From positions 2,496,001 to 2,560,000 of the forward strand of contig OZ240219.1 of NCBI GenBank assembly GCA_965197645.1: a DNA stretch of 64,000 bases. The letters run 5' to 3'. The notes below the pieces were generated by a model. It was given only the letters and a program-made list of their open reading frames with translations, was not told the origin of the DNA and did not search any database. The stretch's first letter is position 1; each line of letters opens with the position of its first letter. The translations under genes and the position numbers were made by a program. Source of the stretch: Dehalococcoidia bacterium. Its GTDB lineage: Bacteria > Chloroflexota > Dehalococcoidia > Plut-88900. This document shows positions 37,270-63,072 of the stretch, one piece after another.

Positions 37270-37626
37270 ACATGCCGGAGCAGGCGATCAACTGGATGAG
37301 AGGCGGCGGTTATGATATCTCATGCGGCGTCGACCTGACGCCATCTCTTCTCATACCTCCCAGAACGAGGTTTTGGGCGACGTGCCAGTTGACCGTGAAA
37401 CGCTTCCGCCCGGCCCCTTCAACTCCACGACGCCTATGGGCAGGCCGTTGACGAACAACACCATGTCCGGCGTGTGAGTGTTCCTGTTCTCGGAGACGGT
37501 GAACTGGTTGACAGCAAACCAGTCGTTAATCCTCAGAGGTCAGAGGCTCGCGTGGTAAGTGATGGGGTACCCCAGTTGACCTAGAGGACGACCTCCCACC
37601 GAAAAGTTCGCAATTCAGTCTTACAT

Positions 37627-37635
37627 GGCCCACCA
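37627..37635 (+). repeat. Direct repeat of the tRNA 3' end (att-like site)
   Basis: GGCCCACCA equals 32047-32055; upstream GTTCGCAATTCAGTC loosely resembles the tRNA T-arm GTTCGAATCCAGGC. Confidence 0.55.
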
Positions 37636-37642
37636 CCGCTTA

Positions 37643-37653
37643 CGGTAGATACC
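37643..37653 (-). repeat. Left inverted core GGTATCTACCG (putative recombination junction)
   Basis: Reverse complement matches 63048-63058 GGTATCTTCCG at 10 of 11 positions and lies in the same reading frame (V-S codons GTA TCT). Confidence 0.6.
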
Positions 37654-37764
37654 GCCATCTTCGAGATGTCGCTCGGCAGCCTGTCGGCGCACCGAGGTCT
37701 GTCGATTCCCGTAGTGTGACGTGTAGGGACGGTCGAACGTAGGGAGCGTCTCGCCATTGGGACT

Positions 37765-40161
37765 TCACTCTCTCTGCGTCTCGCCCTTGGGCATCCGGTA
37801 GCCGACGCGAGGCTCGGTGAAGATGTAGGTGGGATTGTCCGCATCGTCGCCCAGCTTGCGGCGGAGGCTGCTAACGATGGTCCTCATGGCGCGAACGTCG
37901 CTGTCGGTCTTCTCCCCCCACACCCGTTGCAGCAGATGCTCGTAGGTCAACACACGTCCTCCGTTCGCCGAAAGCTCGGCGAGCAGCCGGTACTCGATGG
38001 CCATCAGCTGGAGCGGACGGCCTGCGAGCGTCACACGGCGTTCGCCGTAGTTGACCACGAGGCCGCCCAGCACATACGGCTCTGACGACTCGGACGCCGC
38101 CCGCTTCCGCAGGGCCGCCCTGATCCTCGCCGCAAGCTCAGTTGGCGAGAAGGGCTTGGCGACGTAATCCACGGCCCCCATGTCCAAGGCCCTGGCAACA
38201 AGCTGGTCCTGTCCATAGGCGGACAGGAAGATCACCGGCACGTCCACCGCCTCCAGGATGTCCTTCATCAACTCGATCCCGTCGGCGCCCGGCAGCATCA
38301 TGTCGAGCAAGACAAGATCGGGCTTCTCGTCTACCACGAGGCGGAGCGCCTCTCCCGGGTCCCCAGTCACCAGCGGCGCATAGCCCGCCCTGTTGAGGGC
38401 GTCGCTGACGTACCTGAGCGCCTGGGGGTCGTCGTCCACCGCAAGGACGCGCACCGGTTGACCCGCCTCCCCCACCGCTCGCTGTGAGGAGCGGACCGAG
38501 CGCGGCGTGGGGACGCTCGCCGTGCCGCTCCCGGACTCTTCGACAGACGGAAGCGTGAAGGTGAACCGCGCTCCCATGCCCGGCCCCTCGCTCTCCGCCC
38601 AGATGCGGCCCCCGTGCGCCTCCACTATCCCCTTGCAGATGGCGAGGCCCAGGCCAGACCCGAGAACACCGCTTCCGCGTTCGTCGCCCTCGATCCGGGT
38701 GAACTTCCGAAACAGGAAGGGCAGCTGCTCAGAGGGTATGCCCCTGCCCTCGTCGGCGACCGAGACCGCAACGTAAAGGCCCTCCCGCACGGCGGACACC
38801 CTGATGACGGACGACTCCGAGGAGTGCCGGGCGGCGTTGGACAGCAGGTTGCCCAGCACCTGCACGATGCGCAGCCGGTCCGCCATGACCAGGGGCAGGT
38901 CGGGTCCGATCTCGATGGCGAGGTTGTTCCTGCCTCCTGAGCTGATGAAGGCGCTCCTTGCCCGGTCCACCAGCGCAGCCACCTCCGCAGGTTCCGGGGC
39001 GACCGGCAGCGTGCCCGTCTCGATGCGGGCCACGTCCAGCAGGTCGGCCACGAGTTCGTGCATGTGGTCGGCCTGCTCCTCGATGATGCGGAAGAACTGG
39101 CGGACCACTGCGGGGTCCATGTCGGTGGACGAACCCAGCACCGTTGCCGCGGAACCCTTGATGGAGGTCAGCGGCCCCCGCAGCTCGTGGCTCACCATCC
39201 CCAGGAACTCGGCGCGCAGCCGCTCAAGCTCCTCCAGGGCCGTCATGTCCTGGAGGGTGACCACCACCGACTCCAGCTCGCCTTCCTCGGAGCGGATGGG
39301 CGTGGCATTGATGATGGTCGTGACGCTCCGCCCGTCGGCTACCTGCATCACGATCTCCTCGGCCCGCACCGTCTCCCCTGTGCTCAGCGCCTGCGCTATC
39401 GGGAACTCTTGCAGCGAAATCTCCCGCCCGTCGGCTCGCCGGTAGGTCAGCGTCTGAAGCAGCTCCTCCACCGTCTGGTCCGGGTTGCGCAGGCCGTCGA
39501 CGATCCTCCTCCCTTCCCGGTTGAGCGACGACGGGGCTCCGGTCTTCGCATCGAAGACCACCACGCCCACGGGGCAGGTGTTGACGAGGGTCTCCAGGTC
39601 GGCCCTGGCCCGCTGCTCCTCCCTGTGCCTGCGGGCGTTGGTAATGGCCATCGCAGCCTGGGACGCGAACATCAGCAGCGTGTCCTCGTCCTCCTGGGTG
39701 AACTCAAGGCCCCCCTCCTTGTCCGATAGATAGAGGTTGCCGATGTGTCGCCCCCTGTGACGGATGGGCGCGCCCAGAAAGCCCTGCACCGGCCCCAGGG
39801 GAGGGCCGATCTCCGGTAGACCCAGCGCCGTCGTGTAGGCGGAGAAGTCGGAGACCCTGAGCGGTTCGGGAAGGCTGCTCAGGTGGGCGAAGAACTCCGG
39901 TCCCCCCGGCAGATCGACGAACCGCTGGCGCTCTTCGGCGGTCATCCCGGAGGTGATGAACGACATCAACTCCCCCGCCTCGTCGAGGGCGGTAAGGCCG
40001 CTGATCCTCGCGCCGGTGAGGGAGCGTGCCGCGTCCACCACCTCTTGCAGGACGGTGTCGAGGTCGAGGTCCTCGGTGATGCGGACGCCCGCCTCACTCA
40101 GTCCGGAGAGGCGGTTCCGCAGGGTTTCAATCTCCCGTTTCAGGCTGTCTGCTGGCTCCAA
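37765..40161 (-). CDS. Fused signalling protein GAF-PAS-HisKA-HATPase-REC-wHTH
   Basis: SHELRGPLTSI, NLLSNA, DEGRGI, GSGLGLAI; REC (VDDD, LLDMMLP, KPF); trans_reg_C (LRRKLGDD...TEPRVGYR); TTG start after GAGGTGG. Confidence 0.92.
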   Translation of the reverse strand: MEPADSLKREIETLRNRLSGLSEAGVRITEDLDLDTVLQEVVDAARSLTGARISGLTALDEAGELMSFITSGMTAEERQRFVDLPGGPEFFAHLSSLPEPLRVSDFSAYTTALGLPEIGPPLGPVQGFLGAPIRHRGRHIGNLYLSDKEGGLEFTQEDEDTLLMFASQAAMAITNARRHREEQRARADLETLVNTCPVGVVVFDAKTGAPSSLNREGRRIVDGLRNPDQTVEELLQTLTYRRADGREISLQEFPIAQALSTGETVRAEEIVMQVADGRSVTTIINATPIRSEEGELESVVVTLQDMTALEELERLRAEFLGMVSHELRGPLTSIKGSAATVLGSSTDMDPAVVRQFFRIIEEQADHMHELVADLLDVARIETGTLPVAPEPAEVAALVDRARSAFISSGGRNNLAIEIGPDLPLVMADRLRIVQVLGNLLSNAARHSSESSVIRVSAVREGLYVAVSVADEGRGIPSEQLPFLFRKFTRIEGDERGSGVLGSGLGLAICKGIVEAHGGRIWAESEGPGMGARFTFTLPSVEESGSGTASVPTPRSVRSSQRAVGEAGQPVRVLAVDDDPQALRYVSDALNRAGYAPLVTGDPGEALRLVVDEKPDLVLLDMMLPGADGIELMKDILEAVDVPVIFLSAYGQDQLVARALDMGAVDYVAKPFSPTELAARIRAALRKRAASESSEPYVLGGLVVNYGERRVTLAGRPLQLMAIEYRLLAELSANGGRVLTYEHLLQRVWGEKTDSDVRAMRTIVSSLRRKLGDDADNPTYIFTEPRVGYRMPKGETQRE

Positions 40162-40252
40162 TGCGCCACCTCGCTTGTGCTGCGGAAGACCCCATACTCC
40201 CACCTCATTGACCGGCTGGAATGGGGACAACCGGGGCAATTCTAGCATTTTG

Positions 40253-40324
40253 GTCGAAAGTTGATAAGACATTACGGAAAACACGTCGAAAGTTGATAGC
40301 GAGTTGATACGCGTGCGGTATAGT
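40253..40324 (+). promoter_or_regulatory. Direct-repeat operator plus -10 box upstream of the FN3 gene
   Basis: GTCGAAAGTTGATA twice (40253, 40285), AGTTGATA again 11 bp after the second (40302), then TATAGT at 40319-40324. Confidence 0.6.
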
Positions 40325-40478
40325 GGGGAGTGACTTTGCCCGATTGAGGGAGATATTCACTTGGCGTTCGACAGGCCGATACCTGCAACAGAGACAGCGG
40401 GCGCACCGGTGGCGGAAGCCGCCGCGACAGCCGCGCTTGAGGCCGTCTTCGCCCGCTGCGTATTCGCACAGATGTTCA

Positions 40479-40493
40479 CCCCCCCCCCCCCCC
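40479..40493 (+). repeat. Poly-C tract (C15)
   Basis: 15 consecutive C in the intergenic region between the kinase and FN3 genes. Confidence 0.85.
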
Positions 40494-40809
40494 GATTTTC
40501 GTCGCCAGCCCGTAGCCGGGCCTCTCTCTTTCGCTTCGAACCCTCTCACCTCCGCCGCGTCGCCGCACGCCCGGAGCACACGCCGCTTTCGGACGGCGCA
40601 CCCAACGCCACTAGGGAGCGGGCAAGCCTCTTGCCGACCGACTTCGCCCGTCCGCCGTCTCTCATATCAACCGTCGCTGCCCGCGACCCTCCACTAGGAG
40701 CGCGCCCGTGGGTGCCACACCTCGTACATCGACGCAGGCTCACGCCAGCCACCCCGTTGGACGGAGGCCCGGCGACGGCCACACACAACACACACAAGGA
40801 GGAGAAACC

Positions 40810-43308
40810 ATGACTCTCGCCGCTAGACCCCGACTCGCCATCCTGTTCGTCGCCCTGGCCGCCCTGTTCCTGTCCCTCACCGGCGCACCGGTCCAGGCCC
40901 AGGACGGCTCCGTACCGGATCAGCCCACGGGACTGTCCACCGAGGCGTCCCACGACCGCGTTAACCTGACCTGGGACGACCCCAACGACGCCAGCATCAC
41001 CCACTACCAGGTGCTGCGGCGAGACCGCGACATCCACGACACCGGCGAGTTCGTCACCATCGACTCCGACACCGGCTCGGCGACGACGAGCTACACCGAC
41101 GACACCGTGGAGCCGGAGAAGCGCTACGTGTACCGGGTCGTGGCGGTGAACGACAACGGCGATAGTCAATGGTCCAGTTTCGCCCGGGCCAACACCCCGG
41201 CGGCCCCCCCGCAGGAGCCGGACCCGACTCCGACGCCAACCCCGACACCTACACCGGAACCGACCCCAACGCCGACGCCTGAGACGGACGGCGACGGGGA
41301 GGGCGGAACGGACGAGGGCGCGCCTGATGGCGCGGTGTGCAGCGCCACCGGTCCCTGCACGACGCTCGACGAGACTGACGGCGTGACCCACGTGGAGACG
41401 CTGGAGCTGACGAACGTGACGCATGACTCCGTGACGCTGGAGTGGACGGCGCCCGAGGGCGACCCTCCGCTGGGCTACGTGATCCTGCGGACCGGTGAAG
41501 GGGCTGCGCCCACGTTGTCGTCGATCATCGTGGGCAACACCGAGTCGCAGGAGACGAGCCATGCCGACAGCGGCCTGGAGCCGGAGACGCTCTACACGTA
41601 CTGGGTTTTGGCGCTGCGCTGGACGGGCGTGTCGGCATTCAAAGATGCAGCGAGCGCGTCGACCACCACCCCACCCGCACCTATAGTGATCGTGAGCGAG
41701 GTCCTGCTCGTGCGCGAGGATGGGACGGCGTACGATGAGCCGGGCAGCCCGCTGAAGGTCGCCCTGGCGCACGGCAGCGAGACAGGAGACTCCATCGTCC
41801 TCACCTGGTCGCCGCCGCGCGAGAGGGACTCTGACGGGCAGCTCGCCGGGCCTGAGGTGGACGTCGATGGATACCTCATCAACGTCACAACGCGTCTGGC
41901 GGACGGCCTACCGTCGTCGTCGTCGCGGCAGGTGGCCGACCTGGGGTCCACGGTGCGCACCTGGACGCACGAGCACGTCGAGCGGGGGATATGGCGCCGC
42001 TACTCGATTCGGGGCGACAAGAACGGCGACGAAGGCCCGGCGGCCTACACGGATTGGGTGCGGATTCCCCAGGACGGCGAGCCGGGCTCGCCGAGCAACC
42101 TGCGGCTGAGCCAGCAGGCTGACCCGACCAGGGTGCGGCTGAACTGGACGGCCGGCTCGGACGCGACCGGCTACAAGATCTACCGCTCGAGTAGCTGGCA
42201 CTGGAGTGATGTCACCCTCGAGTATGAGCTTCACTACGGCGTGGAGCTACAGGCCGGCGACGTCACGACATACACCGACGGCGACGCGGTGAGCCTGTAC
42301 TTAGGCACCACACACGACAACGACAACAACCCCGACACCAGGCGGATCATCGCGGGCGTGCTGCCCGGCTTCACCTACCGCTACGTGGTGGAGGCGGTCA
42401 ACGCGAGTGGAACAAGCGAGCGCACGGCGCAGGCAACCATCCTGATACCGACGGCGGGCAAGCCCAACGCGGTGCGCAACTTCGAACACGGCACCATCAG
42501 GCGCGGCAACGGCGCCACGACGAACATCCGGCTGAGCTGGGACGCGCCGCAGGGGTTCACGACGAACAGCTTCGGCGGGACCGCCGGCTACTTCATCGAG
42601 CGCGCCCTCGACCTGGCCGAGCACACCGAGCGGGGCCTGGACTGGGTGAACCTGGCGACGGTGAGTATAGGCACCCACACCTATACGGACAGCGCAGCGG
42701 TGGACGCGGCCAACGCCGACCGGATCATGCCCTTCGGCACGACCTGGCGCTACCGCATCCGCGCCGTCAGCGGCCTGGACGCTACCAAGCAGAGCGACAA
42801 CAGCTACGTCGACGCCGCGATACCCATGCCCTCAGGCGTGCCGGATCTCATCACCGCTGATCTCATATCGTACCTCCTCCCCTTCCCCACTGGGTACGGG
42901 ACGTTTGGCATTGACGAAAAGATGTGGACATGCGCCATGGTGAAATGGGATGGAGATGATTCCAGTCCCACCGACCAACGGATTCTTCGCCTTGGGCCAG
43001 GCGTGACCAGCTGGCACGATCCGGACGCTGTGCTCGTGTCCAGCACGAAAGGCTTGTCGGAGAGGAGCACTACTGCGGATATCACCCGCCTACGCGGAAC
43101 TGGGACTACTGGATCGAATAGCGTGTGTGACACGACCGTCGAGGCGGGCGAGACGTACATCTATATCGTGCAGGCAAAGAACGGCAACGGCTGGAACACG
43201 CAAGTCGTCGATGAATTCAATGTTATCGACACAATCGCCGTCTTCTACATTGAGACGGGCTCCGACGCCCCGCCGCCGCCCACCGAGGTCGAGCAGGATA
43301 CCGAGTAG
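40810..43308 (+). CDS. Secreted multi-fibronectin type III protein with a PT-rich linker
   Basis: Signal peptide (VQA-QD); repeated P..L....V.L.W...Y.I.R...YTD..V....Y.YRV.A.N modules; (PT)n linker at about 41221-41283; SD AAGGAGG. Confidence 0.88.
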   Translation: MTLAARPRLAILFVALAALFLSLTGAPVQAQDGSVPDQPTGLSTEASHDRVNLTWDDPNDASITHYQVLRRDRDIHDTGEFVTIDSDTGSATTSYTDDTVEPEKRYVYRVVAVNDNGDSQWSSFARANTPAAPPQEPDPTPTPTPTPTPEPTPTPTPETDGDGEGGTDEGAPDGAVCSATGPCTTLDETDGVTHVETLELTNVTHDSVTLEWTAPEGDPPLGYVILRTGEGAAPTLSSIIVGNTESQETSHADSGLEPETLYTYWVLALRWTGVSAFKDAASASTTTPPAPIVIVSEVLLVREDGTAYDEPGSPLKVALAHGSETGDSIVLTWSPPRERDSDGQLAGPEVDVDGYLINVTTRLADGLPSSSSRQVADLGSTVRTWTHEHVERGIWRRYSIRGDKNGDEGPAAYTDWVRIPQDGEPGSPSNLRLSQQADPTRVRLNWTAGSDATGYKIYRSSSWHWSDVTLEYELHYGVELQAGDVTTYTDGDAVSLYLGTTHDNDNNPDTRRIIAGVLPGFTYRYVVEAVNASGTSERTAQATILIPTAGKPNAVRNFEHGTIRRGNGATTNIRLSWDAPQGFTTNSFGGTAGYFIERALDLAEHTERGLDWVNLATVSIGTHTYTDSAAVDAANADRIMPFGTTWRYRIRAVSGLDATKQSDNSYVDAAIPMPSGVPDLITADLISYLLPFPTGYGTFGIDEKMWTCAMVKWDGDDSSPTDQRILRLGPGVTSWHDPDAVLVSSTKGLSERSTTADITRLRGTGTTGSNSVCDTTVEAGETYIYIVQAKNGNGWNTQVVDEFNVIDTIAVFYIETGSDAPPPPTEVEQDTE

Positions 43309-43357: not shown

Positions 43358-43385
43358 ACGCAAAAAGGGCAGCACACATGGGAAG
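43358..43385. repeat. Dispersed motif CAAAAAGGGCRGCACACATGG, copy 1
   Basis: ACGCAAAAAGGGCAGCACACATGGGAAG; further copies at 43779 and 45292. Confidence 0.7.
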
Positions 43386-43488
43386 TCCGGGCGGGGCGGC
43401 GGTCCTGCCCGGACAACGGATTCGCCCAATTCCAGGAGTGGACAGACGGCGGGAGCGTCCTGGCGAGTCCCTGTGGAAGGCCGACCAG

Positions 43489-43734
43489 ATGCCTCGACAG
43501 CGCATACACCACAGCAGAGTGACCTACCAAGTCCCCCACGACTTCCCGGAGCGGCTGGAGCGGTTCAAGGAGGAGTCGGGGCTGTCGTGGGCGGAGATTG
43601 CACGGCGTCTCGACGTCCACCACGAGACGCTGCGGCGCTGGAGGAAGGGACGGGCTCGCCCCAGCATGCGGAACATGATGGCGCTGGTGGCCCTGGCGAG
43701 ACCCTTTGGCCTCGCCCACCTGTTCACCGACTAG
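43489..43734 (+). CDS. XRE-family HTH protein
   Basis: DFPERLERFKEESGLSWAEIARRLDV..ETLRRWRKG..P. Confidence 0.8.
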   Translation: MPRQRIHHSRVTYQVPHDFPERLERFKEESGLSWAEIARRLDVHHETLRRWRKGRARPSMRNMMALVALARPFGLAHLFTD

Positions 43735-44066: not shown

Positions 44067-45218
44067 ATGAACGAGGAGCATGACGGGACGGACCAGGAGA
44101 AGCCATCGGAGGAAGAGTACCAGAGGTTTCGCAGGATGATGGACGGCATGGGTCGCGAGGGCATCCGGCGCATGGTCGAGCATCTGACGGAGAGAATCGA
44201 GGCGAACCCCCGCGACGCCGAAGCCCTGTCCGCAAGGGGGCTGGCGTACGCCGAGCTGGGGGAGCACCGCCTTGCGGCGGAGGACTACGGCAGGGTCATC
44301 GCCCTGGACCCCGGCAACGCGGGCGCCCACCTCGGCAGGGCGCGCGCCTATGGCAGGCTGGAGGAGCACCGCTCGGCGGTGGAGGACTACGACGCCGCCA
44401 TCCGCCTGGCCCCCGGCGACGCCGTGGCGCACTACAGCCGGGGGGCGTGCAAGGCGGAGCTGGGCGACCTTGCGGGGGCGATGAGCGACTTCGACGTGGC
44501 CGTCACCATGGCCCCCGGCGACGCCGACGCCCACTACAACCGGGGATTGACCCAGGTGGCGATGGGCAAACGCCACCGGGCGGTGAAGGACCTGAGCAGG
44601 GCCATAGACTTGAACCCCAACCTCGCCGACGCCCACTACCACCGGGGCATGGCATACCGCGACATGGGCCGGATGGACAGGGCGGTCAGGGACTTCGACG
44701 CCGCCGTCGAGATCGAAGAGCGGTACGGCCTCGCCTTCTACGCCAGGGGAATCACCAACGTCAACCTGGGAGCACACGAGGCCGCGCTCGGCGACTTCGA
44801 CGCCGTGCTGGGGCTCGACCCCGACAACGCCCCGGCGCTCCGGGGCAGGGGCGTCGCCCTGGGCAGCCTGGGCCGTTACGACGAGGCGGTCGGGGACTTC
44901 GGCCGGTCCCTGGAGTTGGACCCCGGCAACGCCGAGGCCCTCGCTGCCCGGGGGCTGGCCCACAGCAGCCTGGAGCAATACGAGCTGGCGATAGAGGACT
45001 ACAGCAGGGTGATCGACCTCGACCCCCGGAACAGGGACGTCCTCTACAGCAGGGGAATCGCCCGCATGTACGCGGCCCGGTTCGAGAGCGCCATCGAGGA
45101 CTTCGAGGCCATCCTCGGCATCGAGCCGGGGCACGCCGCGGCGCGGGGGGCGAGGGGGTTGGCCCGCGAGACGCTGGAGATGCGGGGCGGCGCGGGCGAG
45201 GGACAGGCGGCGCGGTAG
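44067..45218 (+). CDS. Tetratricopeptide repeat protein
   Basis: About 10 tandem 34-aa repeats (A...RG.A...LG....A..DF..A..LDP); SD AGGAGG. Confidence 0.92.
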   Translation: MNEEHDGTDQEKPSEEEYQRFRRMMDGMGREGIRRMVEHLTERIEANPRDAEALSARGLAYAELGEHRLAAEDYGRVIALDPGNAGAHLGRARAYGRLEEHRSAVEDYDAAIRLAPGDAVAHYSRGACKAELGDLAGAMSDFDVAVTMAPGDADAHYNRGLTQVAMGKRHRAVKDLSRAIDLNPNLADAHYHRGMAYRDMGRMDRAVRDFDAAVEIEERYGLAFYARGITNVNLGAHEAALGDFDAVLGLDPDNAPALRGRGVALGSLGRYDEAVGDFGRSLELDPGNAEALAARGLAHSSLEQYELAIEDYSRVIDLDPRNRDVLYSRGIARMYAARFESAIEDFEAILGIEPGHAAARGARGLARETLEMRGGAGEGQAAR

Positions 45219-45403: not shown

Positions 45404-46510
45404 CTAGGCGGCTGCCGGCTCCGGCTGCTTGAGCATGGCGGAGTAGCCGGGCATCAGGACGGGCGTCATCGACAACCGGCCCGCGCCGTCGTACCCGGCG
45501 CGGTAGGCGTACTCCGCCTTCGCGCCCCAGGGCACCCGGCCGCCGACCCGGACGGCGGGACCGCCGGACCTGCCGCGGCGCCCAGGCCCGCCCGCGCCGT
45601 GCACCACCATCCCGCTCCGCTCGCCCTTCCGCCAGCCCAGCACCTTCACCTCGGCGGGCATGACCCGCTCCTCCGACTTCGCGCGCCGGAACAGCACGGC
45701 GTGCAGCCTCTTCAGCACGCCCGCCGACGGGCTGGCCTTGCCGTTCATGATCTGGGAGAGGTACGAGGAGCTGATGCCGGCGCGCCGTGCGACCTCGTTC
45801 TGGCTGAAGCCGTGAGCGTCCATGCGGTCCCACACGGCCTTCGGGTCGACGCAGGCAAGCTGCGCGGACGCGACCGTCGCCTCGGCCTCCAGCGCCGCCT
45901 CGACCAGCGCCTGGACCCTCACGCCCATGCCCCTGCGGCCGCGGGACACCTCCGACATGTAGCTGGCGGACACGCCGACCCGCTCGGCAAGCTCCCGCAT
46001 GGTCATGCCCAGGGCGCGGGCGCGCTCCCGGACGTAGCTGCTCTGCCCGTTCACCACGCTCGCCGGGCGGTTGGCGCACTGTGCGGGCGCGATCTTGGCC
46101 GGGGCCTTGAGCGCCGACTCGATCCGGGTCTGGACCTTGACGCCCATGTTGACGCGGCCACGGGCCACCCCCGACATGTATCCGTAGGACACCCCGGCGC
46201 GGTCGGCCAGGTCCCGCATGGTCATTCCCATCTCGCGGGCGCGCTCCCTGATGAAGCTGCTCTCGCCGGTCACGACGCCGCCCTGGCGGTAGACCGTCCC
46301 CTGGCCGGGGACCTCTCCCAGCACCGCCGCGACCTTCTCCCGCATCACGGGCGTCCACGGACTGCCTCCGTTGGCGAGCCGTGACAGGTAACTCGCGCCC
46401 ACGCCCATCCGGGCCGCCAGCTCCTTCATGGTGAGCCCGCGCCGCCTCGCCGCAGCCCTGAGCTCGCTCTCCGCCGTCCTGGTTCCGGTTGCCATCGTTG
46501 CCGTCGTCAT
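45404..46510 (-). CDS. Protein with four tandem XRE HTH domains and an unrecognised C-terminal domain
   Basis: Four repeats of G(L/M/F)(T/S)..(E/D)(L/V)A.R.G(V/I)...Y(L/M)S....G; SD GAGGAGG before ATG 46510. Confidence 0.85.
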   Translation of the reverse strand: MTTATMATGTRTAESELRAAARRRGLTMKELAARMGVGASYLSRLANGGSPWTPVMREKVAAVLGEVPGQGTVYRQGGVVTGESSFIRERAREMGMTMRDLADRAGVSYGYMSGVARGRVNMGVKVQTRIESALKAPAKIAPAQCANRPASVVNGQSSYVRERARALGMTMRELAERVGVSASYMSEVSRGRRGMGVRVQALVEAALEAEATVASAQLACVDPKAVWDRMDAHGFSQNEVARRAGISSSYLSQIMNGKASPSAGVLKRLHAVLFRRAKSEERVMPAEVKVLGWRKGERSGMVVHGAGGPGRRGRSGGPAVRVGGRVPWGAKAEYAYRAGYDGAGRLSMTPVLMPGYSAMLKQPEPAAA

Positions 46511-55466: not shown

Positions 55467-55519
55467 GCAACGAAACGACGGACACATAGAGAGAGGCCCA
55501 TAGAGGAAGGAGTAGAGCA

Positions 55520-58042
55520 TTGAAGCTGAACCCGAAGAACCTGTTGTTTGGAGAAGATGGCGAGAAGAAAGGTCCCGTCCTGCTGGCGGTGACGCCGCCC
55601 CGCGCCGGGGAGCGCACCCTGCTGGGCGTGGAGAACATGCTCGGCTCCATCGCGGTGCCGGAGCCCTTCTCCCTGGAGCTGGCCGCCGACATGGACGGCG
55701 TGACCCTCTTGGCCCGCTGCCTCGACGACGAGGTGGTGAGAGGCCAGCTCTCCGCCCACTACCCCCAGGCCCGAATACAGAAGGTTGACCCGGACGACGA
55801 CCCCCTGCGCCTGGACGAGAGTGAGCGGGCGTGGAGCATGACCCTGCGGGCCGACGGCCCCGAGTACGTCCCCCTCAGAACATTCAGGGACGACGACCTG
55901 CTCGACCCCGGCTCCGACCCCCTCATCGCCCTGATGGGAGCGCTCTCGGCCCTGGAGGACGACGAGCGCGTGGTGGCGCGGCTGCTTCTGCGCTCCCTGG
56001 GACCCGACTGGTCCCAGCCTCATCTCGAAAAGGCCCACAAGAGGCCCGGCATGGAGCCGAGGGAACCCGCCTACACCTACCAGACCAAGCCGTTGCAGAT
56101 GGACGGCATCACGATGGCCGTGCTGGGCATCGGGGCGCTGGCGGCCCTGAAGGGCTACCTGTGGGTGCAGGACGGCGAGATATGGAAGGCCGCGCTCCTG
56201 GGAACCGGAACCGTACTGGGCCTGGCGGTCGGCGGCTGGGCGTTGTGGCGGTGGAAGAAGTCCCGCAAGCGCGTCGAGGACCCCATCCTGATACAGGAGA
56301 AGGTCTCCCGCATCGCCTTCGACGCCGAGCTACAGGTCACGGCGATCCTGCCGGAGACGACCCGGCCCCAGCGGGCCGCCGAGCTTCTCGGTCCGGTTGC
56401 CGCCGCCTACCGCCACTTCGACAACCCTGCCGGGGCGCGGTTCAAGGTCGGCGGGGTCCGGCCCATAACGCCGGACCCCGACATGCTCCATCCGTCAGGC
56501 CCCGGCCTGTTCGGAAGGCGCAGCGTCATGGGCGTCCGCGAGATCGCCTGCCTGTGGCACCCGCCCGGCGCGGGCGACGAGACGCCCCTGGTGGAGCGGT
56601 CCGGGGCGAGGGCGCTCCTGCCCTCTGCGAAGGGCGTCAGGGGAGGCGCGCTGGTGGGAGACACCACGGCGGGCAAGCCCCGGCCCATCCGCTTCCCCGA
56701 CGACCTGCTCCGCCGGCACCACCTCTACGTAGCCCGCACACGCATGGGCAAGTCCACCCTCATGCACCACCTCGTCGCCCACAAGATGAGGGAGAAGGCC
56801 GAGGGCAGGGACCCGGACGCCATCATCGTCATAGACCCCCACACCGACCTTGTGGCCGGGCTGATGGAGCACGTCCCGGAATCCCTGATAGACCGCGTTC
56901 GTCTGATAGACCTGTCCGACGAGACCCGCTCCCCCGGCATCAACCTGCTGGACACCCGCATCTTCGCAGACCGGGACCGCACCGCCGACTCGGTGGTGCG
57001 CGTCGCCAAGGGCCTGTGGGAGCAGTGGGGGCCGAGGATGCAGTCCATCCTCGAACAGACGGTGAAGACCCTGCACGAGGCCAACGAGCAGGTGGAGGCG
57101 GAGCGGCAGTACACCATCCTCGACGGGCTGCGCCTGCTGTCCAACGACCCCTTCCGCAACTCCGTGCTGAAGAAGGTCTCCGACCCCTATCTGCTTGAGT
57201 GGTGGGCCAGGGACTTCGGAAGCTGGCATCGCCAGTACCGCGCCGAGGCCCTGGCCCCCGTCCAGACCCGCCTCTCCTACTACGCATCGTCGAAGCGGGC
57301 CAGGGCCATCCTCGGCCAGCGCCGCTCCACCATCGACCTGCGAAAGACGATCCACGACGGCGGAGTCCTGCTTGTATCGACGTCGCAGGGCGTCGTCGGC
57401 AGGGACGTGGCCGCCCTGGTGGGCGCGTCCCTCCTCAACCTCGTGGATGCCGTGATACGGGAGCAGGGAAGCCTGCCCCTGAGCAAAAGACGCGGCGCTC
57501 TCGTGGTGGTGGACGAGATGCAGTCGATGCCCGGAGTGGACTACGAGTCGATGCTGAGCGAGCTGGGCAAGTTCGGGGCCAGCTTCGTGCTCGCCACCCA
57601 GAGCCTCGCCAAGCTGGACGACCTCTCCCCCACCATGCGCGACACCCTTCTCGCCAACGTCGGCTGCCTCGCCGTCTTCCAGGTGGCGGGGAACGACGCC
57701 CGGACGCTGGTCTGGGAGCTGGGCAAGGACCGGGTGACCGAGGACGACATCACGTCGCTGCCGGTCCATCACTGCTACGTCCGCGCCACCGTGGGCAAGG
57801 AGCGGATGCCCGCCTTCTCGATGATGGTCAGAAAGCCGGAGGAGGGTGAAGCCGACACCGCCGCCCGCATCCGCGCAGCGGCTGCCGCATACACCGTCCC
57901 GGCCCCGCAGATCGCCTACGGCGACGCCGAGGGCGACCTGAAGGTGGAGGAGTTCCGCAGGGGCGTCGACGAGCTTGGGAAGGACGGCGGACAACAGCAG
58001 CAGAAGCCGGAAGCCGGGGAAGCAGAGGAGGCTGAGGAATGA
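55520..58042 (+). CDS. VirD4/TraD-like type IV coupling protein
   Basis: Two TM helices, Walker A-like ARTRMGKST, IDPH.DL, VVDEMQ and LATQSL motifs. Confidence 0.85.
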   Translation: MKLNPKNLLFGEDGEKKGPVLLAVTPPRAGERTLLGVENMLGSIAVPEPFSLELAADMDGVTLLARCLDDEVVRGQLSAHYPQARIQKVDPDDDPLRLDESERAWSMTLRADGPEYVPLRTFRDDDLLDPGSDPLIALMGALSALEDDERVVARLLLRSLGPDWSQPHLEKAHKRPGMEPREPAYTYQTKPLQMDGITMAVLGIGALAALKGYLWVQDGEIWKAALLGTGTVLGLAVGGWALWRWKKSRKRVEDPILIQEKVSRIAFDAELQVTAILPETTRPQRAAELLGPVAAAYRHFDNPAGARFKVGGVRPITPDPDMLHPSGPGLFGRRSVMGVREIACLWHPPGAGDETPLVERSGARALLPSAKGVRGGALVGDTTAGKPRPIRFPDDLLRRHHLYVARTRMGKSTLMHHLVAHKMREKAEGRDPDAIIVIDPHTDLVAGLMEHVPESLIDRVRLIDLSDETRSPGINLLDTRIFADRDRTADSVVRVAKGLWEQWGPRMQSILEQTVKTLHEANEQVEAERQYTILDGLRLLSNDPFRNSVLKKVSDPYLLEWWARDFGSWHRQYRAEALAPVQTRLSYYASSKRARAILGQRRSTIDLRKTIHDGGVLLVSTSQGVVGRDVAALVGASLLNLVDAVIREQGSLPLSKRRGALVVVDEMQSMPGVDYESMLSELGKFGASFVLATQSLAKLDDLSPTMRDTLLANVGCLAVFQVAGNDARTLVWELGKDRVTEDDITSLPVHHCYVRATVGKERMPAFSMMVRKPEEGEADTAARIRAAAAAYTVPAPQIAYGDAEGDLKVEEFRRGVDELGKDGGQQQQKPEAGEAEEAEE

Positions 58043-59691
58043 AGCCCGAAGGATGTGAGGCCGACCTGCTCCGCGCGCTGTCGCGGATGCCCTTCCTCGA
58101 CCGGCTGGAGATGGTCGCCGTCTGCGGCTGGTCCAGGGGCGCGGTCTACGAGGCCATAGAGAGGCTGGAGTCCGGGGGGCTCTGCGCCTCCGTGCCCCAC
58201 GCCACGGGGCTGCTTCCCCCTTCCCGGAGGTTCCACCTCACCGCCGAGGGGCTGAGGCGGCTCGCCGCAGAGGAGGAGGTCTCCCTCGATGAACTGCTTC
58301 GCAGCCGCCCCGTCTCCGCCCAGTGGCGGCGCAGCCTGATGGAGCGCCTCGACGCCGTGGCATCCGTCTACGGCGTAGCCTCCAACGTCTCCGACATCGC
58401 GTTCCCCGTCCGGTTCCGCTGGTACCGCTCCATCCCCCTCGACGCCGCCATGACCCTTCCCGACGGGAGGACCGTCGGCATCGTCCGGCAGGGACTGACC
58501 GCCGACAGGTCGGGCTTCTCCCGGCGTCTCTGGGGGCTGCGCGACTGGCCGATTCCCGGAACGGTGCTGGCGCTCATGGCCGACGAGATGCGGCTCAGGC
58601 ACGCCCGAAGGCTCCTCTCCACCACCGACGTTCCGGCCCTGCTCGCCGTGGAACGCCTTGCGGTCCTGACGGGGGCGGGCGACCGGATATGGAGTCCGCC
58701 GAAGATCGGCGCCGAGATCGACCTGCGCTACGCCCTCGACCGGGTGGGGCCAGGGGGACAACTTCCAATAGAGCCGGAACCGCAGCGCGCCGACCCGCCC
58801 GCCGACTTCGCCGTCGAGGGTCCGGGATGGGACATCCCCGACCACATGCTGCCGGTCCTTCTCAAGCCCATAGAGAAGCGCGCCCTCGACCTCATCTCCG
58901 ACTGGCCCTGGATCGCCCTCAAGGAGATGGCCGGGCTGATGAACGTCTCGACCCAGAGGGTCTCCCACGGCGTCATCCCCCTCGAAGGCTTCGGCCTCGC
59001 GGCCCGGCCCCGGGAGGCGGGCGGACGCCTCGCCCTCACCGACCGGGGGCTGGCGCTCCTGGCCCGCAGGGACAGGACTTCCGTGGCCGTAGCGAGGAAG
59101 CGGTGGAGCGTCACCCTGGAGGATGCCGAAGGCCCCTTCGAGTGGCGCAACGTCACCGGCAGGCGGACCCGCCAGCTGCTCAGGAACATGGAGCACACCG
59201 CGGCCGCACACGGCTTCCTGGCCGCGCTCGCCGAGCAGGCCCCCCTGCTGGGGTGGGAGGTCGTCCAGCTCGACCCGCCCCGCAGGGCCTCCCGCCACTT
59301 CCGGCACGACGGCGGCATGCGCGCCGTCAACCCCGACGCCTTCGGCGTCCTCCGCAAGGACGATGCGACCTGGCCCTTCTTCCTGGAGTGGGAGCGACGC
59401 GCCGTGCGCCCCTCCACCATGTCCGACCGGCTGGCCCCCTATCTGCGCTACTACTCTTCTCACAGGCCCACCGACGACCACGGCACACGGCCCGCCGTCC
59501 TGGTCGTCTTCGACGACGAGATCGCACAGACCCACTTCCTGCGCGTGGCGCGGGAGGAGATGCGGGCCGAGGGGGTGACGGTGCCCCTGTTGGTGTCCCA
59601 CAGGCAGGCCATAGACGCCCTGGGGCCGATGGGACACGCATGGCGCACCCCCGCCGACCCGCAGTCCCCCCAGGCCCTGACGCCTCAATGA
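58039..59691 (+). CDS. Replication-relaxation (Replic_Relax)-family relaxase, two-module form
   Basis: wHTH followed by H..AAH and PDAFG...FFLEWER PD-(D/E)xK-like core; follows virD4 with overlapping start. Confidence 0.75.
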   Translation: MKPEGCEADLLRALSRMPFLDRLEMVAVCGWSRGAVYEAIERLESGGLCASVPHATGLLPPSRRFHLTAEGLRRLAAEEEVSLDELLRSRPVSAQWRRSLMERLDAVASVYGVASNVSDIAFPVRFRWYRSIPLDAAMTLPDGRTVGIVRQGLTADRSGFSRRLWGLRDWPIPGTVLALMADEMRLRHARRLLSTTDVPALLAVERLAVLTGAGDRIWSPPKIGAEIDLRYALDRVGPGGQLPIEPEPQRADPPADFAVEGPGWDIPDHMLPVLLKPIEKRALDLISDWPWIALKEMAGLMNVSTQRVSHGVIPLEGFGLAARPREAGGRLALTDRGLALLARRDRTSVAVARKRWSVTLEDAEGPFEWRNVTGRRTRQLLRNMEHTAAAHGFLAALAEQAPLLGWEVVQLDPPRRASRHFRHDGGMRAVNPDAFGVLRKDDATWPFFLEWERRAVRPSTMSDRLAPYLRYYSSHRPTDDHGTRPAVLVVFDDEIAQTHFLRVAREEMRAEGVTVPLLVSHRQAIDALGPMGHAWRTPADPQSPQALTPQ

Positions 59692-59712
59692 ACGACGAGG
59701 AATGAGAGACCC

Positions 59713-59994
59713 ATGCCTACACAAGATGCCCATAAGCGGGAAGGCCCCCGGAGGCGCGGAGGACGGACCGTTGTCCTGCTCGACGTGGCGGCCCTCTGGA
59801 AGCGGCTGGCACTGCTGAACCGCTCCCAGAACTGGCTCGCCAGGGAGATCGGGATAAGCCCCGGCTACGTGTCGAAGCTGGTCAACACGGGGCGCTCCCC
59901 CTCCGGTCGCATCCGCCGCCGGATGCTCAAGGCCCTGGAACTAACCGAGTTCGGAGACCTTTTCAGACTGGAGGATAGCGATGAACAACAGTAA
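59713..59994 (+). CDS. XRE-family HTH protein
   Basis: SQNWLAREIGISPGYVSKLVN.GRSPS. Confidence 0.85.
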   Translation: MPTQDAHKREGPRRRGGRTVVLLDVAALWKRLALLNRSQNWLAREIGISPGYVSKLVNTGRSPSGRIRRRMLKALELTEFGDLFRLEDSDEQQ

Positions 59995-60307
59995 CGACCC
60001 GACCCGTTTCGACGGGCGCGACAACCCCGTAGCCGATGGGACCGAACCCCTGGACGGCGGCGTGCTGCCCGAGGACTTCGGTGAGCGCCTCGAGCAGCTC
60101 AAGGAGCTCAGCGGCCTCTCGTGGCGCGGCTTCGCCAAGGCCCTCGGCGTGGACCCCAAGCAGCTGCGCATGTGGCGCATGAAGGGCGTCGAGCCCTGCG
60201 GCGGAGCAATGCTCTCCATCTGCCGCTTCGCGTTCCGGATACCCGGCGGCCTGCCGGTCATCCTGGGCGAGGGCATCCAGATGACCTTGTTCGAGGAGGA
60301 GAGCTAG
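59981..60307 (+). CDS. XRE-family HTH protein, paralog of 43489-43734
   Basis: DFGERLEQLKELSGLSWRGFAKALGV..KQLRMWR. Confidence 0.8.
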   Translation: MNNSNDPTRFDGRDNPVADGTEPLDGGVLPEDFGERLEQLKELSGLSWRGFAKALGVDPKQLRMWRMKGVEPCGGAMLSICRFAFRIPGGLPVILGEGIQMTLFEEES

Positions 60308-60476
60308 ACAACCGGCCCCGCCGGGCGCAGGGCGCGCATCGGCGGTACGGCGGGGCCTGAACCGGCTTGGAGGCCGTAGGCGCTCGCCCCTTCCGTCGGC
60401 GCCGGCGGCCCCCCGGCCGCACAACTTGCAACGAGAGGCCAGCGGCCCACAAGAGACTCCGCTGCGACCACGCACC

Positions 60477-60713
60477 ATGAAAGATCCCAGAAGAAACAAC
60501 GGACGAAAGAGGCCCGGAGAGCGGGAGCTTGAAGACGCCCTGGAGCGCTCCATGCCGTCCTACACCCCGGAACACCGCAGGGCCGTCCTGAAGGGGCTGC
60601 GCATCCTGGCCCGCGTCGCCATCCGCTCCTACATGGAGGAGCGGGCGTCCGCATCGCACCGAGCAGAAACCGGGGAGGATGGCGGCGAGGAAGAGGGTCA
60701 GCGTGGAGTGTAA
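60477..60713 (+). CDS. Small hypothetical protein near the recombinase
   Basis: Amphipathic LKGLRILARVAIRSY helix; coding-like codon pattern. Confidence 0.5.
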   Translation: MKDPRRNNGRKRPGERELEDALERSMPSYTPEHRRAVLKGLRILARVAIRSYMEERASASHRAETGEDGGEEEGQRGV

Positions 60714-60769
60714 GCGGGGGTGCAGGCGGTCCGGTGCGGGAGGAAGGTGCGCAGCGAGTGTGGCGCGTT

Positions 60770-61126
60770 CTAGTACATGATGAGATGGGTGGGAACGAGT
60801 CGCTGCGCAATGGGGTCCACCGCCAGCCTCAACCCCTCCAGGGTGTAGGCTCCCAGCAGAGCCGGTGCGTCGTCCTCTCCGAACACGACGAGAGTGACCT
60901 CGCTGGAGCCGTTGACCGTCGCCCAGGCTCTCCCAATGTCCATCTCCACCCGGCGACCGTCGGCGAGCAGGAAGACGCCCTTGTCCATCGGCTCGATCCC
61001 CAGCTCGCGCAGAAGGCTGCCGGGCAGCGTCGTGTAGGCGGCCCCGGTGTCCACCGTCGCCTCTACCTCCCGCTCCTGCTGCCCGTCCATGCTGGAGATG
61101 CGCAGAGGGCACCTGAAAGTCCCCAT
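60770..61126 (-). CDS. Clan AA (retropepsin-like) aspartic protease
   Basis: VDTGA and LLGAYTLEG..L.VDP motifs; paralog of 24647-25057. Confidence 0.85.
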   Translation of the reverse strand: MGTFRCPLRISSMDGQQEREVEATVDTGAAYTTLPGSLLRELGIEPMDKGVFLLADGRRVEMDIGRAWATVNGSSEVTLVVFGEDDAPALLGAYTLEGLRLAVDPIAQRLVPTHLIMY

Positions 61127-61203
61127 AGGGAGAGTCGCTCCTTCTCAGTGTCTACCACCCCATTTTACTCCATTCGGAACGTCTCTTATAGGGGCTGTGG
61201 CCC

Positions 61204-61232
61204 TTGACACCGGCAGCCGGTTCGTCCATGAT
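61204..61232 (+). promoter_or_regulatory. Promoter of the RHH-recombinase operon
   Basis: TTGACA-17 bp-CATGAT. Confidence 0.5.
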
Positions 61233-61271
61233 AAGGGTAAGACATATTGTTACATCGAAGGGCAAAAAAAC

Positions 61272-61493
61272 ATGCCGAAGAAACGAAGGACCGTCACCTT
61301 CTCTCTGCCGCCCGAGATGGACGACCAGCTCAGGCAGGCGGTCAGGGAGGACGGCCGCACGCTGAGCGAGCTTCTGCGCGAGGCGTTCCGCCTCTACCTG
61401 GAGGAGAGGGAGTGGCGCAGACAGGAGAGGACGCAGATGCGGCGCTTGCGCCGAACCAGCAGGAAGCAACAAGGAGGACCAACAGATGAGTGA
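61272..61493 (+). CDS. Ribbon-helix-helix (CopG-like) protein
   Basis: TVTFSLPPEM...L....RTLSELLREA..LY; overlaps the recombinase start. Confidence 0.85.
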   Translation: MPKKRRTVTFSLPPEMDDQLRQAVREDGRTLSELLREAFRLYLEEREWRRQERTQMRRLRRTSRKQQGGPTDE

Positions 61494-63072
61494 GCGAAAC
61501 GACCGCACGCCGGCAGCCCTCTACGCCAGGGTCTCCAGCGACCGTCAGGACGTGGACCTGTCCGTGTCCGCCCAGCTGAGGGCGCTCAGGGACTACGCCG
61601 ACAAGAACGACTACGAGGTCGTCCGGGAGTACGTGGACGAGGCGGAGAGCGGGCGCGTGATGAACCGCCCGGAGTTCCAGAAGATGCTGGACGAGGCCAA
61701 GAGGACCGACGCGCCCTTCGAGGAGATATTGGTCTGGAAGTTCTCAAGGTTCACCCGCAAGCGCGAGCACGCCGTCATTCTGAAGTCCATGCTCAGGCGC
61801 AAGGGCCTCCGCGTCGTCTCCATCACCGAGCAGGCCGAGGACAACCCCACGGGCAGGCTCCTCGAAGGCATCATCGAGACCGTGGACGAGTTCTACAGCG
61901 AGAATTTGGCGATGGAGGTCTTGCGGGGAATGCGCGAGGCCGCATCCAGGGGCTTCTGGGTCGCTCCGATGGCCCCCTACGGCTACAGGAAGGTCAAGGT
62001 GCTGGACGGCCCCAAGGAGAGGCCCGCCCTGGAACCGGACCCCGAAACGAACGGCATCGTCAAGCGCATCTTCGACCTGGCCGAGACTCGCAAGGGGATG
62101 ATGAAGATCGTCCGCATCCTCAACGACGAGGGCATCTCCAGCCCTAGGGGTAAGCTCTGGAACAAGCCCACCGTCCACAACATCCTCAGAAACGAGGCGT
62201 ACCTGGGCACCCTGGTCTGGGGCAACAACGCCAAGGACGGGGCCGAGCCGGTGCGGGTGGACAAGGCGTTCCCCGCCACCGTCGCCAAGGACCAGTTCGA
62301 CCGGGTGAACAGGATACTGCGCTCCCGCGCCCCCAAGGTCTCCCACCCCCGCAGAGTCGGAAGCACCTTCCTGCTGAGCGGCCTGGTCAAGTGCTACAGG
62401 TGCAAGAGGGCGCTCTCGGGCCGCTACTCCAGCAGGGGCACGTTCCCCTACTACGTCTGCCACTCCTTCGTCAAGCGCGCCCCCGGGTCCTGCGACTCGC
62501 CCAGGGTCGACGCCCGGCAGTTCGAGGAGCTGGTCGTCGGCCTGATTCGCACCAACATCCTGACCGAGGGCAACATTCGGAGCCTGGTCAATGTCGTGGA
62601 CGAGCAGATGGACGACGTGGCCGGTGACGAGCGCAAGCGGCTGGAGACCATCGAGAAGGAGCTTGCCGACGTGAGGGGCAGGCTCGACCGGCTCTACGAC
62701 CTCGTGGAGACGACGACCGAGTTCAACATGGCCGACTTCGCCCACCGCATCCGAGACCACAAGGAGCGTCAGGAGCGCCTTGAGTCCGCCGCTGAGGGGG
62801 CGAGGGCAATCCTGGCCCAGCGCAGGGCGGTCCTCGACGACGTGAAGACCATCACGGCCTACGCCAAGGACATGAGCAGGTTCCTCAAGTCGAGCGAGCT
62901 GACGGAGCGCAGGGCCTTCATCGAGACCTTCGTCAAGGAGATCGAGCTTCTGCCCGACAACGCCGTCGTCCGCTACACCGTTCCCATGCCCGACGACAGC
63001 TTGATTCCAGGAAAAAAAGTCCAGGAGATACCGCTGAACGGCTCGGTGGTATCTTCCGACGTGGCGGCGTAG
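61486..63072 (+). CDS. Large serine recombinase (resolvase, recombinase and Zn-ribbon domains)
   Basis: YARVSS..Q catalytic motif, SRFTR, PYGY, LSGLVKC..C, YYVC...C and coiled coil. Confidence 0.95.
   Translation: MSERNDRTPAALYARVSSDRQDVDLSVSAQLRALRDYADKNDYEVVREYVDEAESGRVMNRPEFQKMLDEAKRTDAPFEEILVWKFSRFTRKREHAVILKSMLRRKGLRVVSITEQAEDNPTGRLLEGIIETVDEFYSENLAMEVLRGMREAASRGFWVAPMAPYGYRKVKVLDGPKERPALEPDPETNGIVKRIFDLAETRKGMMKIVRILNDEGISSPRGKLWNKPTVHNILRNEAYLGTLVWGNNAKDGAEPVRVDKAFPATVAKDQFDRVNRILRSRAPKVSHPRRVGSTFLLSGLVKCYRCKRALSGRYSSRGTFPYYVCHSFVKRAPGSCDSPRVDARQFEELVVGLIRTNILTEGNIRSLVNVVDEQMDDVAGDERKRLETIEKELADVRGRLDRLYDLVETTTEFNMADFAHRIRDHKERQERLESAAEGARAILAQRRAVLDDVKTITAYAKDMSRFLKSSELTERRAFIETFVKEIELLPDNAVVRYTVPMPDDSLIPGKKVQEIPLNGSVVSSDVAA
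63048..63058 (+). repeat. Right inverted core GGTATCTTCCG inside the recombinase 3' end
   Basis: Matches the reverse complement of 37643-37653 at 10 of 11 positions. Confidence 0.6.

Follow-up and report, generated by a model that had tools for sequence, protein, structure and literature searches.

A 64-kb stretch of a Dehalococcoidia genome (contig OZ240219.1, positions 2,496,001 to 2,560,000 of the forward strand; 64,000 nucleotides, referred to below as the window, with coordinates counted from its first letter) encompasses a GC-rich element of 25.4 kb that carries the genes of a type IV secretion system (T4SS) and is closed at the right by the gene of a large serine recombinase. Within the 3' end of that gene lies a 14-mer, GGTGGTATCTTCCG (63045-63058), which faces a second 14-mer, GGCGGTATCTACCG (37643-37656, minus strand), at the far end of the element; the two are equal at 12 of the 14 positions, inverted relative to each other, and in the same codon phase. 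The question raised by this arrangement is whether the element can flip between the two 14-mers and, if not, what they are. The original prediction took them for crossover cores and held that the entire element had undergone, or was able to undergo, inversion between them. We conclude instead that the element is an ordinary, well documented serine-integrase integrative conjugative element (ICE) with a damaged right attachment site (attR), and that the inverted match is ordinary dyad symmetry of attachment (att) sites. Our reading, to which we assign a probability of about 0.68, is that of an ICE with a pseudo-palindromic attP, a normal attL, a lost attR side, and an integrase with a flank-swapped tail.

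Arms, core, and crossover of the attachment site

The recombinase (61486-63072, plus strand; 528 aa) contains the Resolvase (PF00239, E = 1.7e-33), Recombinase (PF07508, E = 7.5e-21), and Zn_ribbon_recom (PF13408, E = 6.9e-12) domains, with YARVSSDRQ near the N terminus. The island at about 38-63 kb differs from its flanks in GC content (0.64-0.73 vs about 0.58-0.62), and all four ICE hallmark genes, those for VirB4, the coupling protein, the relaxase, and the integrase, lie inside this one island as bounded by GC content and homology. These T4SS, relaxase, and recombinase domains, together with arms at both ends, uphold the earlier description of a conjugative element bounded by recombinase-related sites; judging from its gene content, the 25.4-kb region is an ICE, one that the large serine recombinase is predicted to move.

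The sequences and translations quoted for both ends in the original prediction are correct on re-reading of the window, and the arithmetic of the proposed flip of 37647-63054 is right. The recombinase gene ends ...AAC GGC TCG GTG GTA TCT TCC GAC GTG GCG GCG TAG, and the minus strand of 37581-37844 reads ...MAVSTVSGGGPCKTELRTFRWEVVL followed by a stop codon. The degenerate pattern GGYGGTATCTWCCG, with at most one mismatch, has two matches in the window, both at these sites, against 0.14 expected, a count reached in 1 of 100 shuffles; the whole genome (3.2 Mb) contains four exact matches of the degenerate 14-mer, all at ICE ends. Given that 424 inverted pairs were listed in 34 kb, an inverted match at 12 of 14 positions is weak by itself, but we count it as real because the same motif is present at the ends of every family member.

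Comparison across the family indicates what the motif is. Below, G000 denotes the genome of the window, other G numbers the genomes of relatives, and L numbers homologue loci. The family attP appears to be pseudo-palindromic, with two 25-bp half-sites, each containing the arm motif GGTATCT(A/T)CCGT. In natural attP-like sites (L075 at G000:1928351, the G008 junction, and L099), the arms are spaced 22 bp apart around a core that resembles a tRNA 3' end. The paired ends of G043, G044, G041, and G045 share the direct repeat AG(C/T)CCACCA, the polymorphic base of which partitions to the left of CC, staying with the left-hand partner. From the partition of this base and the centre of symmetry, we place the predicted exchange at the CC of GGC-CC-ACCA, 10 nt inside the arms. 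Thus, the two inverted 14-mers are, by family comparison, the P and P' arm (half-site) motifs of attP and not crossover sites, the crossover mapping 10 nt further in than had been proposed; the P arm sits within the last codons of the recombinase, and the P' arm is at the far end.

At the left end of the element, the attB-type half-site, or B arm (37590-37631, plus strand), is one of the copies of a dispersed repeat, which is made up of CTCCCACCGAAAAGTTCGCAATTCAG and some 10 further nt; it ends in the tRNA-3'-end-like GGCCCACCA (37627-37635). It is followed by the P' half-site of attL (37632-37656, plus strand), which consists of ACCACCGCTT and then the arm ACGGTAGATACCGCC and holds the left 14-mer (37643-37656); the crossover dinucleotide would be the CC at 37630-37631. 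Homology of the left end with the paralogous element ICE-3 and other copies begins at CCCACCA. By comparison with its relatives, the arrangement repeat-GGC-CC-ACCA-CCGCTT-arm is the canonical attL of its lineage. In serine-integrase elements, attL resembles the reverse complement of attR because each holds one P arm of the dyad.

Integration targets and the two core orientations

The dispersed repeat is present in eight copies in G000 and in many copies in relatives, and the same repeat, at equal spacing, lies beside the far ends in G010, G044, G041, and G006; we suggest that it serves as the B half-site for these ICEs. In the window, the repeat (about 45 nt, with some copies ending GGCCCAC(CA)) spans 37593-37635, and the other copies in G000 are found at 591191, 995557, 1998491, 2996241, 3084919, 3103772, and 3193495. 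The repeat is similar, moreover, to the 3' end of a recombinase of a second type. The sequence at 37627-37635 equals the 3' end of the tRNA genes that are abutted by paralogous recombinases. Nevertheless, a tRNA remnant at the left end was rejected, given that the repeat there has no Rfam match and that ARAGORN calls no tRNA in it; the tRNA-like stretch next to the far end in G008 is likewise not called as a tRNA.

Including that of the window, G000 encodes six related recombinases. The five paralogues all end in S-(T/A)-(V/L)-x-x-G-(G/P)-(P/A), and the respective DNA consists of the arm TCTACCGT, six bases, and TGGTGGGCC, that is, arm-N6-TGGTGG(G/A)(C/G)C; three of these five ends are the reverse complement of the 3' ends of called tRNA genes (Ile, Lys, and Ala). 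The mirror motif of the far end, ACGGTAGA, followed by a conserved stretch, occurs in six copies in G000 and in 27 copies in 8 of 12 family genomes, with the core ahead of it in either of two orientations.

These two orientations separate cleanly by recombinase clade. We matched 79 of 80 loci and, with seven alignments that fell short of residue 524 set aside, 72 were scorable. Of the 48 ends in the close clade (identity of 85% or more), 46 are of the 'CC' type, arm-N7-(A/G)G(T/C)CCAC, the remaining two being broken differently (L137) or at a contig end; in the distant clade (59-75% identity over the last 84 residues), all 24 are of the 'GG' type, arm-N6-TGGTGG. In the 'GG' type, the recombinase abuts the tRNA, whereas in the 'CC' type, the far end abuts the 3' end of a tRNA or of the repeat and the recombinase end joins the downstream B' arm. 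The far-end targets in the close clade are the tRNA-like stretch in G008, a called tRNA-Ala that adjoins the 'CC'-type far end in L071, and the repeat ending in GGCCCACCA in G010, G044, G041, G006, and the window. In G044 and G041, the B' arm (GACTTGA..AAATC.AGAAC) is located 3' of the core on the recombinase side. In G008, the closest relative with a genome handle (recombinase 95% identical over residues 1-524), the tRNA-like 3' end is followed by six bases and the far end, and the recombinase runs on as ..TCTTCCGTAAGCGGTAGCCCACCA.

The asymmetric tRNA-like core is thus present in both orientations relative to the recombinase across the family, and the sister lineages appear to differ by a flip of the core between the arms, on the evolutionary scale. 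The opposite insertion orientation at tRNA genes, by lineage, may have been produced by such a flipped core in the same site.

Several other arrangements of these sites were observed. At least seven convergent, tail-to-tail pairs of two different large serine recombinase genes, 30-57 nt apart and with a complete arm-core-arm site between them, are found in G010 (for example, C3:23303-26412, C3:57433-60557, and C4:734112-737236) and G008 (C1:158240-161406); it looks as if elements had inserted serially, each into the att-bearing end of another. At L068 (G000:C1:2966558-2966760), the far end of ICE-3 lies inside a truncated helix-turn-helix (HTH) gene, a homologue of 43378-43734, joined at CTCGC-CC-A; one element has thus inserted within another at a pseudo-site, and the inner one has since lost its recombinase side. 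L075 (G000:C1:1928320-1928420) is a solo attP-like site in which a remnant recombinase end, the core, and the far end follow one another with the frame open throughout.

The damaged right end

At the right end, homology stops short of the crossover. After ..GGTATCTTCCG, close homologues continue with GTAA(A/G)CGGTAG(T/C)CCACCA (G008; 46 of 48 loci), and the window reads ACGTGGCGGCGTAG. Only the outer part of the P arm is retained (63045-63058, plus strand; breakpoint 63058/63059), and the three parts expected next, namely, inner arm (GTAA.CGGT..), crossover at CC, and B' arm, are absent. Residues 1-524 of the recombinase are homologous to the family and all alignments end at residue 524; the final DVAA and the stop codon are encoded by the non-homologous flank, with the stop 12-14 nt past the last homologous base. 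The SDVAA end occurs in none of the 72 scorable loci and, among 88 proteins with the LNGSV-type motif, only in the window's own. The missing stretch, GTAA..CCACCA, has no copy elsewhere in G000.

The course of events that we consider most likely is as follows. The joining of the far end to the repeat 3' end would have given a normal attL; on the right, everything from the end of the outer P arm up to 63059 (inner arm, crossover, B' arm, and perhaps further chromosomal sequence) was most likely lost through a secondary deletion, and this loss would have given rise to the unique SSDVAA end. The VirB4 gene of the window carries a 1-nt deletion near 54272 relative to the paralogues ICE-2 and ICE-3, resulting in two frames. 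The loss of attR and this frameshift would leave the element unable to excise or transfer, and given the truncated attR and the VirB4 deletion, we read the window element as a decaying copy, probably immobile and trapped, with the immobility deduced from these defects. The trapping suggested in the original prediction is thereby retained as probable, with the loss of the attR side, rather than an inversion, as its cause. The reactions invoked here, namely, integration by attP x attB recombination and excision dependent on a recombination directionality factor, are predicted properties of the class. The site anatomy, the family comparison, and the missing stretch are read directly from the genomes, and it is deletion as the cause that we infer.

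Other accounts of the right end were considered and set aside. The right flank as the degenerate far end of a tandem ICE was rejected, given that the alignment score was reached in 69 of 300 shuffles. A host gene split by the element was rejected as well: the flanks give no continuous minus-strand frame, and nothing more than a 62-aa piece of HsdR is present in the left flank. The repeat copy at 1998491, which continues GGCCCACGTGG.. like the flank, raised the possibility of a simple deletion of 13 nt with its end at the crossover; this account was downgraded, since relatives have a B' arm after the core and the flank is without one. As for a remnant recombinase gene, tblastn searches of either flank gave chance-level matches only.

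Several observations weigh against our reading of this copy. The right flank contains no recognisable B' arm, which means that the element had inserted at a poor target to begin with or that the deletion extended into the chromosome. No empty site or relative with an insertion at the same site was found; the left flank matches G006 (95-97%) over 34517-37337 only, without synteny, and the right flank was found neither in 41 relatives nor in the five closest relatives, nor as an exact 42-mer in genome contigs or an exact 26-mer in metagenome contigs. Because the right flank has no match, we can only infer the size and nature of the attR loss. The VirB4 deletion could be a real frameshift or an assembly error. 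No contig that bridges 63058/63059 was present among the pieces listed, and the join in the window is accordingly uncorroborated. Finally, the evidence on orientation given below is drawn solely from relatives and paralogues.

The strongest competing account explains the junction at 63058/63059 as an artefact of assembly, or as two population variants joined together, such that the real attR is canonical and the flank comes from an ICE-free or other allele. It draws on a comparison of the public contigs of four runs with 58000-64000 (many candidate runs are labelled sponge or marine metagenomes); contig depth in this comparison is a sum over many organisms and is uninformative on copy number, uncovered parts do not constitute evidence, and the joints listed for this interval amount to short skips that come from related copies. 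In X19, X21, and X24, which come from three studies, a flank contig matches 63059-63909 only (851 letters, with 0, 17, and 26 differences, respectively). These contigs are 886, 890, and 903 letters long, with 35, 39, and 52 letters outside the match; we read these extra 35-52 letters as lying to the left of 63059 and differing from the window, and with the reverse numbering, the contigs would end at 63059. Flank contigs of three runs, 97-100% alike over 851 nt, thus stop matching exactly at 63059, and two X1 contigs that match the recombinase end take the canonical continuation after 63058; furthermore, at least six related ICE copies in the genome could confuse an assembler. However, mis-joins usually fall within a shared repeat and not at the last homologous base, and the paralogous copies are only 75-91% alike. 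The lack of a bridging contig is not established, since only a minority of the pieces was listed, and the continuation in X1, which shows the N6 found in G008-like loci, could stem from other organisms. We therefore consider the artefact unlikely: the breakpoint is real as a discontinuity, and the unconfirmed join in the window may be specific to the strain or, less likely, an assembly fault.

Somewhat less probable still is that the junction is the scar of an aberrant recombinase reaction, in which the CC of attR, or of an integration intermediate, was cut, the P side was resected to ..TCTTCCG, and the ends were joined without the recombinase. Should the flank in other samples begin exactly at 63059, that edge of the loss may mark a recombinase-made end, and the close homologue L137 also breaks off within the inner arm; against this, the flank has neither a B' arm nor ACCA after the putative crossover, and the edge need not be a crossover.

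Orientation of the element

The comparison with paralogues and relatives indicates that the orientation of the element is normal for its lineage. The window element is co-oriented and collinear with ICE-3 (37629-41249 and 48747-63013, 83-91% identity) and with ICE-2 (37780-63058). The five closest relatives that were checked have recombinases with 96-99% identity, and in every one of them the motif of the far end is found 26-52 kb upstream on the recombinase strand. The perfect split of core type by clade argues that the orientation is fixed in each lineage and is not switching. A flip of 37647-63054 would create the 'GG' junction that is seen in none of 46 close relatives and would merely shift the defect, that is, the missing inner arm and core, to the opposite end.

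The orphan tail at the far end, STVSGGGPCKTELRTF.., does resemble the tails of homologues, for example, ..SSVNGSPLYLTELRTF.. The proposed check against homologues did turn up tails like STV..GGP..TELRTF (for example, in P0017), and the cause of the likeness proved to be different: both read antisense through the same attB-type repeat, at an equal distance from the arm. In those homologues, the antisense repeat faces the recombinase side, whereas in the window, it is on the far side.

Hin/Gin-type serine invertase switches employ small invertases and identical crossover sites, with both orientations coexisting. The element in the window is similar in its inverted sites and serine recombinase, whereas a small invertase, identical sites, and coexisting orientations were not seen here; neither inverted sites that contain the crossover nor both orientations among close relatives (46 of 48 of one type and none of the other) were found.

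Inversion of the whole element between the two 14-nt cores, parting the recombinase from its STVSGGGP... tail as a switch or a one-off event, therefore appears very improbable, even though the cores are real, inverted, and in frame, the orphan tail is like those of homologues, and the 'GG' and 'CC' forms of the family differ by exactly such an arm-to-arm flip on the evolutionary scale: the crossover is 10 nt away from these cores, GGCCCACCA-N6-arm is the normal state of the far end in the lineage (ICE-3, G008, G010, G041, G043, and G044), the element is collinear with its paralogues and oriented as in its closest relatives, core type tracks recombinase clade without exception (46 'CC' and 24 'GG') and with no sign of frequent switching, and a flip would leave the opposite end with neither inner arm nor core. 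On this comparative evidence, inversion appears to be neither needed nor supported.

The C-terminal tail of the recombinase

What did stand is the claim that the recombinase gene overlaps its att site and that its C terminus is set by the sequence across the site. The open reading frames (ORFs) of the family have no stop before the att site, through which the ORF runs in all five paralogues and in 70 of the 72 scorable loci, and, once integrated, the gene is completed by residues that the flank encodes and that vary in number. As the ORF contains attP, integration swaps a conserved tail (..TVDxTIFEMWLGxL) for these residues. In the window, the tail is the open frame TVDTAIFEMSLGSLSAHRGLSIPVV (37642-37719, plus strand, closed by a stop codon), which, in the excised circle, would continue the recombinase frame across attP.

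Of the 27 far-end copies, 25 keep F-E-(M/L), and most end 14-26 codons past the arm. The query (pattern or BLAST) that retrieved the copies spanned tail codons 1-10, so that part of the conservation seen in this stretch was built into the search. Frame +0 has the best ratio of synonymous to non-synonymous changes of the six frames, 44:52, the others ranging from 7:75 to 26:56. Nucleotides 33 and 36, the third positions of Leu and Gly codons, which lie outside the search pattern, vary in 13 and 15 of 25 distinct copies, respectively, with the residues kept; such third-position variation does not tell frame +0 apart from the minus frame of the same wobble phase, a distinction that the synonymous to non-synonymous count makes only moderately well. 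Contiguous natural ORFs that carry the tail are found in L099 and, among the 120 homologues listed, in P0072, P0103, and P0122. Taken together, these patterns suggest that the tail is translated and functionally relevant.

At somewhat less than even odds, we tentatively propose a split-tail gene, in which only the excised circle would encode the full recombinase with its tail and each integration would swap in arbitrary flank residues, so that the tail would act as a sensor of the state of the element; a flipped core would then have given the sister lineages of opposite orientation. If so, full integrase activity or stability, for example, would be attained only on the circle.

Gene content of the element and its surroundings

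The conjugation module, as identified by Pfam domains, spans 49687-59691 on the plus strand and encodes a TrbL/VirB6-like protein (49687-50664), a T4SS pilin (50803-51111), a PrgI-like protein (51135-52850), the VirB4/TraC-like protein split by the 1-nt deletion near 54272 (about 52621-55486), a coupling protein (55520-58042), and a Replic_Relax relaxase (58039-59691). It is followed, 5' of the recombinase gene, by small regulators on the same strand (59713-61493), namely, an HTH protein (59713-59994), an HTH-like protein (59981-60307), and a ribbon-helix-helix (RHH) protein (61047-61493). No second resolvase domain was found among the window ORFs scanned, and the RHH gene stands upstream of the integrase; from its position alone, it is a candidate partner of the recombinase.

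The left part of the element holds cargo. A hybrid histidine kinase/response regulator (37765-40284, minus strand; GAF, PAS, HisKA, HATPase_c, Response_reg, and Trans_reg_C domains) is homologous and collinear in ICE-3 and ICE-2. Further cargo or regulatory genes encode an fn3 protein (40708-43308, plus strand), an HTH protein (43378-43734, plus strand), a tetratricopeptide repeat (TPR) protein (44067-45218, plus strand), and a triple-HTH protein (45404-46708, minus strand). The TPR gene contains 102-nt TPR units within 44255-45124, and a 212-nt direct repeat with 77% identity (45860-46290) encodes the repeated HTH domains of the triple-HTH gene.

The left flank contains an MMPL transporter gene and the HsdR fragment, and the right flank a glyoxalase gene. 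The HsdR fragment (37354-37539, minus strand) is a 62-aa piece of the N terminus of a type I restriction HsdR (PF04313, E = 2.4e-12) with stop codons on both sides. A 111-nt stretch at 37417-37527 is found again at G000:3019079-3019189 and in several relatives. At the other edge of the window (about 63830-64000), the summed contig depth of public runs climbs from 2-10 to 220-350 over a fragment of a PF00520 ion-transport gene (63765-63986, minus strand); this rise reflects conserved or repeated sequence at the window end.

Discussion

The family to which the window element belongs is abundant in sponge-associated Dehalococcoidia metagenome-assembled genomes, and its traits can be set against those of several known systems. 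The serine integrase of the mycobacterial phiRv1 uses the dispersed repeat REP13E12 as attB. In both cases, a large serine recombinase inserts at copies of a repeat that is dispersed in the chromosome; phiRv1 differs in being prophage-like and in having an unrelated repeat, and it is not known to show tRNA mimicry.

The attP of large serine recombinases has been described as a pseudo-palindrome in which the recombinase and zinc-ribbon domains bind half-sites of 25 bp and crossover takes place at a central dinucleotide (Rutherford et al. 2013, PMC3783163). As with the Listeria phage A118, or LI, integrase treated in that paper, attL and attR here each combine one P-type and one B-type half-site. 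The A118 site is not described there as lying inside the integrase ORF, whereas here, the final codons of the gene make up P and a tRNA-like core occupies the spacer. A site inside the integrase ORF is also a trait of the SSV-type ('suicidal') tyrosine integrases of archaeal viruses and elements, in which integration into a tRNA gene splits the integrase gene; as described in PMC7253208, these are archaeal tyrosine recombinases and the gene is split into two large parts, in contrast to the serine recombinase here, in which the last 15-35 codons are exchanged.

The closest parallel is DsiB of Dehalococcoides, as described in PMC3146451, to which the likeness is by description. There, as here, the host is a member of Dehalococcoidia, a large serine recombinase of about 540 aa is encoded beside the att site and has a variable, flank-encoded tail, insertion takes place at the 3' end of a gene for a structured RNA, and islands accrete in tandem. 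In the account given in PMC3146451, the 3' end of dsiB invariably overlaps attL, and no stop codon of the gene falls within the island. The differences lie in the target, which is ssrA for DsiB and the 3' ends of tRNA-Ile, tRNA-Lys, and tRNA-Ala as well as a tRNA-end-like repeat here; in the type of element, given that DsiB islands are integrative mobilizable elements and the window element, as an ICE, has its own T4SS; and in the neighbour of the integrase gene, where an RHH gene takes the place of a small, DsiA-like serine recombinase. The conserved in-frame tail past attP goes beyond what is described for DsiB.

McMurdie et al. (2011, PMC3146451) suggested that dsiB may be fully functional only on the circle. 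That remark now becomes testable, as there is a conserved peptide, the presence or absence of which can be assayed. The family provides dozens of attL/attR pairs as well as natural attP-like sites, shows both core orientations, and inserts at targets from tRNA genes to a mimic of the tRNA end, which makes it good material on how large serine recombinases read their sites; the split tail, at the level of the family, is the part most worth pursuing.

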